From the NCBI RefSeq assembly GCF_046105845.1, contig NZ_CP151004.1: a DNA stretch of 64,000 nt; one strand, written 5' to 3'. The translations under genes were made by a program, and so were the position numbers. The notes beneath the pieces are model-generated. The model made no database searches. It had not been told where the DNA came from and saw only the letters and a program-made list of their open reading frames with translations. This stretch comes from Escherichia coli. Its GTDB lineage: Bacteria > Pseudomonadota > Gammaproteobacteria > Enterobacterales > Enterobacteriaceae. Shown here in pieces: positions 1-57,360 of this stretch. Position 1 is the first letter of the stretch. Every line of letters starts with the position of its first letter.

Positions 1-39
1 AGCCCAACCATGTGTGCCTATAACAATAGCAATGGTCAC
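1..39 (-). CDS. manX: 5' fragment (13 codons) of mannose PTS EIIAB component; gene continues beyond window start
   Basis: Minus-strand translation from GTG at 39 gives VTIAIVIGTHGWA, matching the remembered ManX N-terminus; divergent from yoaE. Confidence 0.6.
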   Translation of the reverse strand, partial: MTIAIVIGTHGWA

Positions 40-501
40 TTGCTACCTCCTTTATTATCGTTAACACCTCAACGTGCCAGATGTATTTTTGAATCGTCGT
101 CCACAATCGAATCGATTCAGATAAGGGCTACAACCAAAAACCCCTGCGTTTCGCGATTTATTTTAGATATCGAAAAAATTATTTTATGTGATGAAGATCC
201 GTAATTTAACTTTCGATTAGCAGAAATTTCGAAAGGTAAAATATCCTTGTCACATTCGTTTGCAAAGGAAGGTAAATCTTTGCCAAATCAGAGGCGTCTC
301 TGATATGTTTAACTCCCGTTTAACAACCATGGAGTATAGGGCAGTAGCCCGCAGTATGGATCGTCACCGACGTCATTTCAGCATCAGGCCTTTTAACGCC
401 TGTCTTTCTGGCACTCTATGCCGCACCTTTCGTTTGCATTTTGTCGTTACGCCTGCATTATTTCTGGCGTCGAATAGCTATTCCTTAAGCAGGAGCTTGT
501 C

Positions 502-2058
502 ATGGAATTCTTAATGGACCCCTCAATTTGGGCGGGGCTACTCACGCTTGTTGTTCTCGAAATTGTGCTGGGTATCGATAACCTGGTCTTCATCGCCATT
601 CTTGCTGACAAACTGCCGCCAAAACAACGCGATAAAGCGCGTTTGCTGGGATTATCACTGGCGCTGATTATGCGTCTGGGGCTGCTGTCGCTGATTTCAT
701 GGATGGTCACGCTGACCAAACCGCTATTTACCGTCATGGATTTCTCCTTCTCCGGACGCGACCTGATTATGTTGTTCGGGGGGATATTCTTGCTGTTCAA
801 AGCAACAACCGAACTGCATGAACGGCTGGAAAACCGCGATCATGATTCCGGCCACGGTAAAGGCTACGCCAGTTTCTGGGTGGTCGTCACACAGATTGTC
901 ATCCTTGACGCCGTCTTCTCGTTGGATGCGGTAATTACGGCAGTAGGGATGGTTAACCATCTGCCGGTGATGATGGCGGCGGTAGTGATTGCGATGGCGG
1001 TTATGTTGCTGGCATCGAAACCGCTGACGCGATTCGTTAACCAGCACCCCACGGTGGTGGTGCTCTGTCTGAGCTTCCTGTTAATGATTGGTCTGAGTCT
1101 GGTGGCAGAAGGTTTCGGTTTCCACATTCCGAAAGGTTACCTGTATGCCGCGATTGGCTTCTCGATCATCATCGAAGTGTTTAACCAAATTGCGCGTCGC
1201 AACTTTATTCGTCACCAGTCGACTTTGCCGCTGCGAGCGCGTACTGCCGATGCCATCCTGCGTTTGATGGGCGGGAAACGTCAGGCCAATGTTCAGCACG
1301 ATGCCGATAACCCGATGCCGATGCCGATCCCGGAAGGTGCATTTGCCGAAGAAGAACGTTACATGATTAACGGCGTACTGACGCTGGCGTCGCGTTCTCT
1401 GCGCGGGATCATGACGCCGCGCGGTGAAATAAGCTGGGTTGACGCTAATCTCGGGGTCGATGAAATCCGCGAGCAGCTGCTCTCCTCACCGCACAGCCTG
1501 TTCCCGGTATGTCGCGGTGAACTGGATGAAATCATCGGAATCGTACGTGCTAAAGAACTGCTGGTGGCGCTGGAAGAGGGCGTTGATGTGGCGGCGATTG
1601 CTTCGGCGTCTCCGGCGATTATCGTCCCTGAAACCCTCGATCCGATCAACCTGCTGGGCGTGCTGCGTCGTGCTCGCGGGAGCTTTGTTATCGTGACCAA
1701 CGAGTTTGGTGTGGTACAAGGTCTGGTCACGCCGCTGGATGTGCTGGAAGCCATTGCGGGTGAATTCCCGGACGCTGACGAAACGCCGGAAATCATTACC
1801 GATGGTGACGGCTGGCTGGTAAAAGGCGGTACAGATTTGCATGCCTTGCAGCAGGCGCTTGATGTTGAGCACCTTGCCGATGACGATGATATCGCGACGG
1901 TCGCGGGCCTCGTGATCTCGGCAAATGGTCACATTCCCCGTGTGGGCGATGTGATTGATGTAGGGCCACTGCATATCACCATCATTGAAGCCAATGATTA
2001 TCGTGTTGATCTGGTTCGCATTGTTAAAGAGCAACCGGCGCACGATGAAGATGAGTAA
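502..2058 (+). CDS. yoaE: TerC-family integral membrane protein with C-terminal CBS/CorC-type domains
   Basis: 518-aa ORF; hydrophobic N-terminal half, soluble C-terminal half; matches remembered YoaE length and sequence. Confidence 0.9.
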
Positions 2059-2061
2059 GCG

Positions 2062-3660
2062 TTAACGTAACGGCATAATGGGCGTGATATGTCCATTATG
2101 CCGGGCGGGCGGCGGTTGGCTGCCCGCCAGCCATTTGGGAAAATCACGTAGCGGCATCGGCTGTGCGTACAAATACCCTTGCAAAATATGCACGCCATGA
2201 CGGCGCAAATACTTCGCCTGTTCTTGCGTTTCCACGCCCTCCGCCACCAGTTCAATATTCAGTCTTTGCCCCAGCGCGATGATGATATCGGTCACCGTCG
2301 AGTTAACCGCGTCAGAACCTATAGCTGCGGTAAATGACTTATCAATTTTCAGCACGTCAGGACGTAATGTTTCAAGCCAGGAAAACGAACTGTTGCCGGT
2401 GCCGAAGTCATCAATCGCCAGTTTGACGTTTTTACGATGCAGCTCGCGGGCAATCCGATAATCAACATCCAGTAAGGCATCGCGTTCGGTGATTTCGAGG
2501 ATCAGTTGCTGAATCGGGTGAGCGCTAAACCAGTACTGATTGAGATCTTTTATCAGCACACCACGGCGAAAATGACTGGGTGCGACGTTAATGCCAACAT
2601 GAAACTGACTACTCATTGGGAAAACATGCCGCTGACGGATGGTTTCTGCCATCACATAGCGGGTCAGTGGCACAATTAAATGATGTTCTTCCGCGATAGG
2701 AATAAACACATCCGGTGAAATCCAGCCCTGACGTGGATTGTTCCAGCGCAGCAAAATCTCTACACCAATACATTGCTGGCTGCGCGCATTAAGCAAAGGC
2801 TGACAGAACAATTCGAACTCATGTTGCGCCAGGCCCAGATTGATTTCGCGGGAAAAGCTCATTCGGTAAGCGGTCGCCAGCCAGGCGATATAGCCCACCA
2901 GTAAACTTAGCAGCACCGCCAGCGGTAATTGTGTTGGAAGATAGTGCCATGCCAGCGCCGTAGCCCCCGGACCATTAACGTTAATGGTAAAAGGAAAGCG
3001 TTGCGAAGAAACCTGATAGTTTTCATTGTCTTCAGGTTGCGGAAGGGAATCTACCAGCCCATTACCATAGAGCAAATGCCGTTTGTCCACCGTCAGGCTG
3101 GCGCTACTGATTTGCGGCAGTTGTGGCTCAAGGAGCATTGCCGTCAGTAAGTCGATGTTAATCATCTCCATGACCCCAGCATTGCTACTGCCCGCTGCAG
3201 GTGTCCATTGAATCAAAACCGGACTGCCTTTAATCAGGGCATGGTCGGTCGTCAGGCGTAAAAGTGGTTGCGGTGCAGGAAGTTCAGCCAGAATGTCCAC
3301 GACGGGCACATTGCGATAACCAAAAATGCTGGAGCAATAAAGTGTGCCGTCTTGCACCAGGCCAATGGATCGCACAGTTTGGAGTTTTGCCGCCTGTTTA
3401 CGTAATGGCAAATGGGCGACAGAGCAGGGCAGACCAATCAGCGGAAGCAAGACTTCGCTACCTGCCTGTAGGGGAAGCAGTACTTTATCTAATTCCTCTA
3501 CAGCGTGATTGGCGAATTGTACTACCCGTTGTTGATTTAAGTTACGCTGTGAAATAAATCGCACGCTCAGGGTCGAAGCGAGCGTAACGAGTGCGCAAAT
3601 CGTACAAACAATCATTCGATTACGGCGATAGGTTTTAATGATCCGTTGTGCTTTTTGCAT
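2062..3660 (-). CDS. pdeD: CSS-motif-domain c-di-GMP phosphodiesterase (EAL domain)
   Basis: Track ORF 2062..3690; start moved to internal Met (MQKAQRII) giving 532 aa; N-terminal TM plus LYCSSIF (CSS) motif and C-terminal EAL-type domain. Confidence 0.85.
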   Translation of the reverse strand: MQKAQRIIKTYRRNRMIVCTICALVTLASTLSVRFISQRNLNQQRVVQFANHAVEELDKVLLPLQAGSEVLLPLIGLPCSVAHLPLRKQAAKLQTVRSIGLVQDGTLYCSSIFGYRNVPVVDILAELPAPQPLLRLTTDHALIKGSPVLIQWTPAAGSSNAGVMEMINIDLLTAMLLEPQLPQISSASLTVDKRHLLYGNGLVDSLPQPEDNENYQVSSQRFPFTINVNGPGATALAWHYLPTQLPLAVLLSLLVGYIAWLATAYRMSFSREINLGLAQHEFELFCQPLLNARSQQCIGVEILLRWNNPRQGWISPDVFIPIAEEHHLIVPLTRYVMAETIRQRHVFPMSSQFHVGINVAPSHFRRGVLIKDLNQYWFSAHPIQQLILEITERDALLDVDYRIARELHRKNVKLAIDDFGTGNSSFSWLETLRPDVLKIDKSFTAAIGSDAVNSTVTDIIIALGQRLNIELVAEGVETQEQAKYLRRHGVHILQGYLYAQPMPLRDFPKWLAGSQPPPARHNGHITPIMPLR

Positions 3661-3790
3661 GCGGGCCACCCTGTAAGCGTATGGCGACAAACGCCTGACG
3701 CAACAGTGGAAGTGTAGTGGGGAATATTACAGCAGACGAGAAAGCGGGGATAAATTCGCCCATCCGTTGCAGATGGGCGAGTAAGAAGTA

Positions 3791-5155
3791 TTAGTCACAC
3801 TGGACTTTGATTGCCAGACCACCGCGTGAGGTTTCGCGGTATTTGGCGTTCATGTCCTTACCGGTTTCGTACATCGTTTCGATGACCTTATCCAGCGAGA
3901 CGCGCGGTGCACTGGTGCGGCGCAGAGCCATCCGTGCGGCGTTAATCGCCTTCACAGAGGCAATGGCATTACGCTCAATGCACGGCACCTGAACCTGCCC
4001 TGCAACCGGGTCGCAGGTTAAACCAAGGTTGTGTTCCATGCCAATTTCCGCCGCCACGCAAACCTGTTCCGGGCTACCGCCCAGCAGTTCTGCAAGACCC
4101 GCAGCAGCCATTGAACAGGCAACACCCACTTCGCCCTGGCAACCAACTTCCGCACCGGAAATAGAGGCGTTCATTTTATACAATGCACCAATCGCGCCCG
4201 CTGCCATAAAGTAACGGGTATAGATGTCCGGGCTGACCGATTCAATAAAGTGGTCATAGTAAGCCAGCACTGCCGGAACGATACCGCAGGCACCGTTGGT
4301 TGGCGCAGTTACCACACGACCACCGGCGGCGTTTTCTTCGTTAACTGCCAGCGCAAACATGTTTACCCAGTCAATGACATTCATCGGATCGTTAGACAGT
4401 TTATCGCTGGAAACTAACATCCGGCGCAGGGCCGACGCACGACGCGGCACGCGCAGCGGGCCTGGCAGTACGCCTTCGGTATTCATCCCGCGATCGATAC
4501 ATGCCTGCATGGTTTGCCAGACATGAGCGAAATACTCGTCGATCTCTTTCTTGCTGTGTAGCGCCAGTTCGTTCTGCATAGCGAGACCAGAAAGCGAATA
4601 GCCGGTTTCATTACAGTACGCGAGCAGTTCGGTGGCAGATTTGAACGGATACGGCACGCTCACTTCGTTGGCGGCATCCTGACCAAAGTGTTCTTCATCG
4701 ACGATAAAACCGCCGCCGATGGAATAATAAGTTTTGCTGTAGACGACTTCATCGCCGTTATAGGCGTGGATTTGCATACCGTTTTCATGCAGCGGCAGGT
4801 TGCCGTTATGAAAACGCATCCCGTTGTCGCGCGGGAAATCCACTTCATGCCGTCCCTGTGCCAGCAGCAGACGTTCGCGCTCTTCTACGTCGCGAATAAA
4901 ACCGGGAATACTGTCGATATCCACGGTGGCAGGTTCGTTACCTGCAAGACCCATAATAATGGCGATATCGGTGTGGTGGCCTTTACCCGTCAGCGACAGT
5001 GAACCATAAACGTCCACGGCAACGCGAGTAACGCTATCCAGTAAGCCTTTTTCGACCAGATCATCGACGAACTGTTTACCCGCCTTCATAGGCCCTACGG
5101 TATGGGAAGATGAGGGACCAATCCCCACCTTAAACATGTCGAATAGACTAATCAC
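3791..5155 (-). CDS. sdaA: L-serine dehydratase 1 (4Fe-4S)
   Basis: 454-aa ORF beginning [23 protein letters not shown]; full-length match to remembered SdaA. Confidence 0.95.
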
Positions 5156-7535: not shown

Positions 7536-7654
7536 CACACTAATCCGTATCGCTTTCGTTATACAAGCCGATGGTTATTTGATTGTGAGAAAAAGGACGC
7601 TTTTCATATGTGATTAAAAGCGTCCTGACCCATTTATGCTGATGTAAATTTAAC

Positions 7655-12136: not shown

Positions 12137-12157
12137 TTGCTTGTTTTTAAAGAAAAA

Positions 12158-12190
12158 GAAACAGCGGCTGGTCCGCTGTTTCTGCATTCT
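12158..12190 (+). terminator. Candidate hairpin terminator downstream of yeaY
   Basis: 10-bp perfect stem GAAACAGCGG/CCGCTGTTTC with a 5-nt loop just after the yeaY stop; weak U tract; coordinates approximate. Confidence 0.4.
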
Positions 12191-38493: not shown

Positions 38494-38528
38494 GGTAAAA
38501 AAAAGAGCGACCGAAGTCGCTCTTTTTA
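38494..38528 (-). terminator. Rho-independent terminator of gapA
   Basis: Minus-strand AAAGAGCGAC-TTCG-GTCGCTCTTT stem-loop followed by a U-run, directly after the gapA stop. Confidence 0.6.
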
Positions 38529-49694: not shown

Positions 49695-49786
49695 ATCTTT
49701 CGTTGATGGCGTCAATTGCCAGATGTACCACTGACGTGTTTTATCTGGCCTACAATGGCAGTACAGAATTGTAGGCCAGCATAAAA

Positions 49787-57299: not shown

Positions 57300-57320
57300 T
57301 TCGTTTTCCACTCTAAAACA

Positions 57321-57360
57321 AAGCCAATGGTAGATATTCCGCCATTGGCTTTATTGGTTA
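57321..57360 (+). terminator. Candidate terminator of topB
   Basis: Perfect 10-bp stem AAGCCAATGG/CCATTGGCTT with 11-nt loop followed by TTATTGGTT, about 20 nt after the topB stop. Confidence 0.5.

Follow-up and report, generated by a model that had tools for sequence, protein, structure and literature searches.

Tandem hairpins within the 3' coding end of pdeD and the 3' end of the convergent yoaE mRNA in Escherichia coli

Several described systems resemble the junction of the convergent genes yoaE and pdeD, which lies in a 64,000-nucleotide (nt) stretch of Escherichia coli DNA (contig NZ_CP151004.1; hereafter the window, whose coordinates are used throughout) and carries two tandem hairpins within the 3' coding end of pdeD. 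In Rho-dependent, exonuclease-trimmed stem-loop ends (Dar and Sorek, 2018, PMC6061677; the same view is held by Adams et al., 2021), a bicyclomycin-sensitive region is found downstream of the RNA end; yoaE shares this trait, together with a C-rich untranslated stretch between its mapped end and the Rho region, and a stable hairpin devoid of a U-tract just upstream of the end. It departs from that class by having two hairpins in tandem, both contained in coding DNA of the convergent gene and conserved with covariation in many genera, and trimming is, for yoaE, a presumed step. Intrinsic terminators are similar in their GC-rich stem-loop, which in the case of yoaE directly follows the stop codon, the RNA ending 7-10 nt after the stem, and true examples are present at orthologous positions in Klebsiella and Franconibacter; the yoaE site, however, lacks a U-tract in E. 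coli and in most of 52 species, and displays apparent Rho dependence. Convergent excludons and bidirectional terminators (PMC12288877; Ju et al., 2019) resemble the locus in that the pdeD and yoaE transcripts overlap, although selection on the RNA of only one strand points to an element centred on yoaE. Lastly, StyR-291, a non-protein-coding RNA candidate of Salmonella Typhi (Chinni et al., 2010, PMC2943607), occupies the same place, downstream of yoaE (mgpA) and antisense to the pdeD 3' end; its 61 nt (FJ746409) correspond to the size of the two hairpins, and its identity with them is presumed from position and size only. Overall, the element belongs to familiar classes, namely the hairpin-defined ends of Rho-terminated transcripts and the convergent excludons.

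The yoaE gene (502..2058, plus strand), known in Salmonella as mgpA, encodes a 518-aa protein with TerC, CBS and CorC_HlyC domains, annotated in RefSeq as a CNNM/TerC-family cation transport protein. On the opposite strand, pdeD (yoaD; 2062..3660, minus strand) encodes a 532-aa protein with a CSS-motif and an EAL domain that ends at residue 501 according to Pfam, annotated as a CSS-EAL cyclic di-GMP phosphodiesterase. The TAA stop codons of yoaE (2056-2058, plus) and pdeD (2064..2062, minus) are convergent and only 3 nt apart, being separated by the spacer GCG (2059..2061), in which a G2061A polymorphism is present in E. coli. The RefSeq annotation of strain K-12 MG1655 agrees on the same DNA (pdeD, 1898427..1900025; yoaE, 1900029..1901585), and MG1655 positions (x) were converted to window positions (w) as w = 1902087 - x, the window plus strand corresponding to the MG1655 minus strand. 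The window is K-12-like. Of 5426 complete E. coli genomes, 5424 contain a match to the 1.2 kb around the site, and over the 121 nt that include the hairpins the identity to MG1655 is 100%. This 121-nt region is single-copy in 5423 E. coli genomes, by which REP/BIME (repetitive extragenic palindromes and the mosaic elements built from them) or any other repeat family was ruled out.

Hairpin 1 (2071..2103, plus) comprises 11 perfect base pairs (bp) between the arms CGGCATAATGG and CCATTATGCCG, that is, a core formed by GGCATAATGG (2072-2081) and CCATTATGCC (2093-2102) with an 11-nt spacer, plus one additional C-G pair (2071/2103); as plus-strand RNA, it gains G·U pairs and reaches 15 bp, closed by the 3-nt loop GAU. 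Hairpin 2 (2104..2128, plus) begins at the base directly after hairpin 1 and pairs GGCGGGCGGC (2104-2113) with GCTGCCCGCC (2119-2128) around the loop GGTTG, 9 of its 10 bp being G-C or C-G and the other a G·U pair formed on the plus strand only. The tandem hairpins fold on the plus strand with a minimum free energy (MFE) of -50.2 kcal/mol (z = -5.75), and more weakly on the minus, pdeD-sense strand (z = -3.33). Perfect inverted repeats of at least 11 bp with a 3-15 nt loop number 7 in the window versus 0.31 expected from dinucleotide shuffling, hairpin 1 being the only one in a long open reading frame (ORF), and it was confirmed that the inverted repeat at the yoaE/pdeD junction is not due to chance. 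The Rfam scan of positions 1-4000 returned only mir-2001, at chance level (22.4 bits versus a gathering score of 74, E = 0.17). A preliminary description of this DNA, made from the sequence alone, had stated that the stops are 3 nt apart with no intergenic room, which is borne out by the ORF ends and the MG1655 annotation. It had also reported a perfect 10-bp repeat with an N11 spacer, which is present at 2072-2081/2093-2102 but actually extends to 11 bp, and had placed it about 20-50 nt inside pdeD, whereas hairpin 1 really spans pdeD codons -3 to -13, 8-39 nt ahead of the stop. The RNA folding that it had named as a check yields the strong plus-strand fold, as well as the extra hairpin at 2104-2128 that it had not reported.

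A primary 3' terminus of the yoaE mRNA is called at 2129..2138 (plus), as two peaks, in the TRS tables (PMC10687069, Suppl. Data 2-4). In lysogeny broth (LB) RNAtag-seq data, the yoaE 'Primary' peak covers MG1655 positions 1899949-1899957 with 1899949 as the dominant one (window 2130-2138, dominant 2138), and in the re-analysis of a published dataset it covers 1899950-1899958 with 1899952 dominant (window 2129-2137, dominant 2135); the yoaE 3' untranslated region (UTR) is given as 81 nt long, with a longest U run of 3 (PMC10687069). The coordinate convention of these tables was checked via the sequence columns of the thrL attenuator row. A stable stem-loop thereby stands just 5' of the mapped stable end, which lies 1-10 nt past the end of the hairpin 2 stem at 2128 (7-10 nt for the dominant positions) and falls within pdeD codons L22-P25 counted from the end, the 3' UTR covering 77 nt of pdeD. 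As for the convergent gene, the TRS tables (PMC10687069) contain no 3' terminus for pdeD, and both yoaE and pdeD are absent from the TERMITe tables.

Further downstream, a Rho termination region (2300..2320, plus) is listed at MG1655 1899777 (minus strand; window 2310) under the label 'antisense pdeD' (10.1101/2020.07.18.207399, Suppl. file 2). The downstream/upstream reads change from 9/51 in untreated to 100/103 in bicyclomycin-treated cells (Rho score 5.5, p = 1.2e-6; 10.1101/2020.07.18.207399), the score being obtained from 800-nt windows and low counts, with a coarse positional resolution. This region sits about 170 nt beyond the mapped yoaE end, after a C-rich, G-poor tract (2160..2300, plus; GC skew -0.24 to -0.33) that is untranslated on the plus strand and constitutes a candidate rut (Rho loading) site. 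Three traits of Rho-terminated transcripts with processed ends are found together at this locus: a rise in read-through with bicyclomycin, C-rich untranslated RNA upstream, and a stem-loop at the end. Furthermore, pdeD-yoaE is one of the 165 convergent excludons that ExcludonFinder gives for MG1655, the pair having been called in no fewer than 50% of 58 transcriptomes (PMC12288877), and the transcripts of the two convergent neighbours overlap, with 77 nt of pdeD under the yoaE 3' UTR. The preliminary description had proposed that, given the 10-bp hairpin, the yoaE 3' end may be formed within pdeD, by termination or otherwise, which is supported in part. An end inside pdeD is indeed called by TRS, although it adjoins hairpin 2 and not that hairpin; the hairpins apparently define the stable end and not the site of termination, since they lack a U-tract and the bicyclomycin data place the Rho region at ~2310. 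It had further considered that transcripts reading far into pdeD antisense with no defined 3' end near the hairpin would speak against the proposal, and what is found is apparent read-through of this kind accompanied by a defined end near the hairpins.

In order to compare the locus across species, the C-terminus of YoaE was used to scan one genome per species, which yielded 80 Enterobacteriaceae loci; the 52 loci carrying the tail were analyzed with 300 synonymous recodings of the same peptide per tail as null. The stops are 0-6 nt apart in most loci of Escherichia, Citrobacter, Enterobacter, Leclercia, Lelliottia, Kosakonia, Cedecea and Siccibacter, among others, and 26-29 nt apart in C. koseri and Salmonella. 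Both hairpins recur in the 52 species, including members of Escherichia, Citrobacter, Salmonella, Enterobacter, Leclercia, Kosakonia and Cedecea. Each of the 52 tails has a better fold than its recodings have on average, with a mean z of -2.83 on the plus strand versus -2.19 on the minus strand; the plus-strand z of single tails lies between -0.8 and -5.0, and for 8 of the 52, p < 0.05 is not attained when the tail is taken by itself. With the E. coli structure placed on the alignment, 76% of the cells are paired versus 34-52% with slid partners, and changes on both sides, i.e., compensatory, are observed in 15 of 23 pairs. The named pairs contain 833 Watson-Crick cells versus 597 +/- 11 in the recodings, along with 138 cells pairing only on the plus strand (G·U; null, 142) and 25 pairing only on the minus strand (null, 66 +/- 7), all these counts being supportive rather than probabilistic because the sequences are related and the structure was taken from E. 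coli. The shortage of cells pairing only on the minus strand argues that selection acts on the yoaE-sense RNA, on which G·U pairs are tolerated and A·C mismatches avoided across the 52 species. A plain MFE comparison, lower on the plus strand in 43 of 52 tails, was set aside as a strand test since the recoding null has the same compositional bias, and the G·U versus A·C count was used in its place. RNAalifold on a MAFFT alignment of the 52 tails recovered 6 pairs only, owing to a register split in hairpin 2 and the drift of hairpin 1, and for this reason we relied on per-sequence folding, counts on the named structure, and recoding nulls. The comparison shows the hairpins to be a conserved RNA structure that is selected in the yoaE-sense RNA.

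The same DNA encodes protein. The last 19 pdeD codons (2065..2121, minus; peptide SQPPPARHNGHITPIMPLR) are located beyond the EAL fold and are provided by both hairpins, hairpin 1 pairing the codons of RHNG with those of PIMP, and hairpin 2 those of PPPA with those of (L)AGS. Across species, the PdeD tail follows the pattern FPxWLA[G/E]..PPPA.HNGH..P.MPLR, with PPPA.HNGH..P.MPLR as conserved motif. Its variability displays a 3-nt periodicity (entropy 0.80, 0.59 and 1.51 by codon position) and its indels are in frame, which marks the tail as a translated sequence under constraint at the protein level. As judged from sequence, this stretch is dual-coded, for a protein and for an RNA structure of the opposite strand. 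Regarding the peptide itself, the Pro-Pro-Pro at 2107-2115 (minus), complementary to the LAG codons of hairpin 2, is PPP or SPP in most species. Polyproline motifs of this kind need elongation factor P (EF-P) for efficient translation.

Several natural variants of this arrangement occur. In Intestinirhabdus alba (L038, 3259-3408), which lacks pdeD, sdaA comes directly after yoaE; the 148 nt between them retain a hairpin 1 homolog with 13 perfect bp along with another hairpin, and these seem to be what is left of the pdeD tail. In Siccibacter colletis (L064), a hairpin-2 homolog is kept and no pdeD was detected. In Franconibacter, the pdeD tail itself harbors a canonical terminator of the yoaE strand (11 bp + T8), the tail peptide being changed so as to supply the T run. 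Klebsiella, Raoultella and Kluyvera combine a short PdeD tail with a gap of 13-91 nt between the genes, and in both Klebsiella loci scanned this gap, 36-38 nt long, contains a canonical terminator on the yoaE strand. Moreover, the PdeD tail of Klebsiella pneumoniae (L039, ~2524-2601) is a Ser-Glu repeat, SREESESESESEGESETTE, whose coding DNA is a CTCTCA/CTCAC simple repeat, a solution quite different from the hairpin tail. Within E. coli, the single-nucleotide polymorphism C2083T is synonymous in pdeD and leaves a U·G pair on the yoaE-sense strand. Strains Sanji (L001) and CREC8 (L086) have lost 4 nt of the GGCGGGCGGCGG tract (2104-2115), which shortens hairpin 2 and frameshifts pdeD. The deletion is identical in both strains, in which pdeD is annotated as a pseudogene, and it may reflect recurrent slippage. 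Two further loci of the scan, deposited as 'Chryseobacterium sp. 18061' (L015) and 'Chitiniphilus shinanonensis' (L079), have an Enterobacteriaceae-type yoaE, with 85% and 77% identity to E. coli YoaE, respectively, and the former also the pdeD tail; these contigs probably belong to contaminated or mislabelled assemblies.

We favor, with somewhat better than even confidence, a reading in which Rho terminates transcription downstream and exonucleases shorten the transcript as far as the tandem hairpins, which stabilize the yoaE mRNA end. RNA polymerase coming from yoaE would pass both hairpins, which sit in the last 19 pdeD codons because the stops are only 3 nt apart, since no U-tract follows them; Rho would load on the untranslated C-rich RNA at ~2160-2300 and terminate near 2310; 3'-to-5' exonucleases would then trim to the hairpins, and these would block further decay, leaving a stable 81-nt 3' UTR. 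The lack of a U-tract, together with the abolition of the coverage drop by bicyclomycin, makes read-through, Rho action near 2310 and trimming the most likely course. A stable stem makes RNase II and polynucleotide phosphorylase (PNPase) stall several nt to its 3' side, in keeping with an end 7-10 nt past hairpin 2. As by-products, an obligatory sense/antisense overlap of the excludon type with the pdeD mRNA would arise, as well as a stable ~60-nt fragment, probably the Salmonella cDNA StyR-291, as suggested by the match in position and size only.

Several points weigh against this reading. A strong GC stem with the RNA end 7-10 nt beyond it is also consistent with intrinsic termination, and the trimming of the yoaE transcript by PNPase or RNase II is presumptive. 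The mapped end rests on one analysis pipeline, TRS, and yoaE is weakly expressed, with adjusted p values of 1.5e-4, 2.1e-5 and 0.24 in three libraries; besides, the Term-seq tables of Adams et al. contain no 3' end between MG1655 18996xx and 19001xx (10.1101/2020.07.18.207399). The Rho score, built on 800-nt windows with low counts, is coarse, and the downstream signal induced by bicyclomycin could stem from antisense starts inside pdeD instead of yoaE read-through. Regarding conservation, hairpin 2 occurs in two registers, one in E. coli and Citrobacter and another in Enterobacter, where hairpin 1 is shifted or degraded, and the covariation counts come from related sequences and an E. coli-derived structure.

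The main rival, to which we assign a clearly lower although appreciable probability, is weak intrinsic termination, i.e., a non-canonical terminator in which hairpin 2, with hairpin 1 and perhaps NusA/NusG, stops some polymerases at 2135-2138 and Rho mops up the read-through. GC-rich hairpin 2, directly downstream of yoaE, supplies the stem-loop expected of such an element, the position of the end after this very stable stem is the usual geometry, and true intrinsic terminators occupy the equivalent yoaE-strand site in other genera. Conversely, hairpin 2 is followed in E. coli by AGCCAUUUGG, with 3 U only where an intrinsic terminator has about 5 or more U in 8 nt; no U-tract is conserved among the 52 species, which have a mean of 1.8 T in the 10 nt after hairpin 2; and the consensus terminator scan called no canonical terminator at the hairpins. 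In addition, the downstream coverage under bicyclomycin equals the upstream one (100/103), which leaves little room for an efficient Rho-independent stop.

A broader proposal is that the yoaE hairpins and the PdeD tail form a co-evolved, dual-coded module in which the RNA structure dictates part of the PdeD C-terminus (PPPA opposite LAG, RHNG opposite PIMP), and in which the 77-nt overlap would operate as a regulatory excludon, so that high yoaE/mgpA transcription (Mg2+ stress) lowers PdeD or the reverse; we regard this as a speculative and rather improbable extension. The remaining readings are less likely. According to the collision model of Ju et al. (2019), polymerases would meet at the hairpins and both be released, producing overlapping 3' ends. 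The convergent genes without intergenic space, the overlapping pdeD-yoaE transcription in at least half of the 58 transcriptomes, and the stem-loops without U-tracts, as described for this class, would agree with such a bidirectional terminator. However, the class is reported to be Rho-independent, in contrast to the Rho score of 5.5 at this site, the TRS tables list no pdeD terminus, pdeD is weakly expressed and collisions should be rare, and selection is detected on the yoaE-sense RNA only; hence, we consider this model unlikely.

Slightly less probable still is an independent cis-antisense small RNA (sRNA) regulating the pdeD mRNA, an E. coli counterpart of StyR-291 with the hairpins as its body. 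The 61-nt Salmonella cDNA fits the size of the two hairpins (58 nt), but StyR-291 was never detected on northern blots, which were negative in both species (PMC2943607), and its addition to a complementing plasmid caused no phenotype change in Salmonella. Likewise, a promoter of its own was rejected, as the plus-strand scan upstream of 2071 revealed no sigma-70-like site near 2000-2070, and the element has no U-tail for Hfq and no Rfam family. The missing U-tail and the negative northern blots also disagree with an Hfq-dependent sRNA derived from the 3' UTR, and our literature search found no link of yoaE to Hfq or to an sRNA; a decay-resistant piece of the yoaE 3' UTR is a simpler account of the cDNA. 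The least credible reading, that the PdeD tail peptide (PPPA opposite LAG, RHNG opposite PIMP) gives rise to the hairpins incidentally and that they have no RNA function, agrees with the protein constraint seen in the codon-position entropy and in the conserved motif, but is opposed by the far better pairing of the real sequences compared to synonymous recodings, by amino-acid changes that come with compensating changes in the partner arm, by the survival of hairpin 1 after pdeD loss, and by the mapped RNA end at the hairpins.

Other features of the window are worth recording. Upstream of yoaE, the small ORF yoaL (52 aa, b4751; 356-514, plus) overlaps its start by 13 nt, and contains a terminator-like hairpin with a T-rich tail (CAGGCCTTTTAACGCCTG TCTTTCTGGC, 385-402), a promoter-like site being located at 280-309; this region could represent a leader-peptide/attenuator arrangement for the Mg2+-related yoaE/mgpA. 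At the other end of pdeD, a second Rho region reported by Adams et al. at MG1655 1898443 (plus; window ~3644, minus) lies 16 nt into pdeD and just past sdaA (10.1101/2020.07.18.207399), and the primary sdaA 3' end determined by TRS is at 1898335/6 (window ~3751, minus), after a canonical terminator (PMC10687069); from both positions, transcription from sdaA into pdeD may be Rho-limited. Six further perfect inverted repeats of at least 11 bp are found at 7594-7626, 12157-12183, 38500-38527, 49745-49779, 57320-57352 and 61389-61420, none of them under an ORF of 80 aa or longer; those at 12157 and 38500 have an A run before the stem and a T run at its 3' end, like bidirectional intrinsic terminators.

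Three elements of this locus are already catalogued, namely the yoaE 3' terminus in TRS, StyR-291, and the pdeD-yoaE excludon entry, and the yoaE/pdeD case does not open a new mechanism; as far as could be found, the conserved dual coding had not been described earlier. Taken together, our results explain how the yoaE mRNA has a defined and stable end despite convergent genes without intergenic space, the end-forming structure being embedded in the dispensable-looking C-terminal tail of the neighbor PdeD. They also provide a clean case of conserved dual coding, in which one stretch serves a protein and an RNA structure of the opposite strand. The loss of pdeD with retention of the hairpins, and their replacement by canonical terminators, make the family usable for studying how terminators and coding sequences share space. 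In practical terms, deleting or tagging the pdeD C-terminus also alters the yoaE/mgpA 3' UTR, and vice versa.

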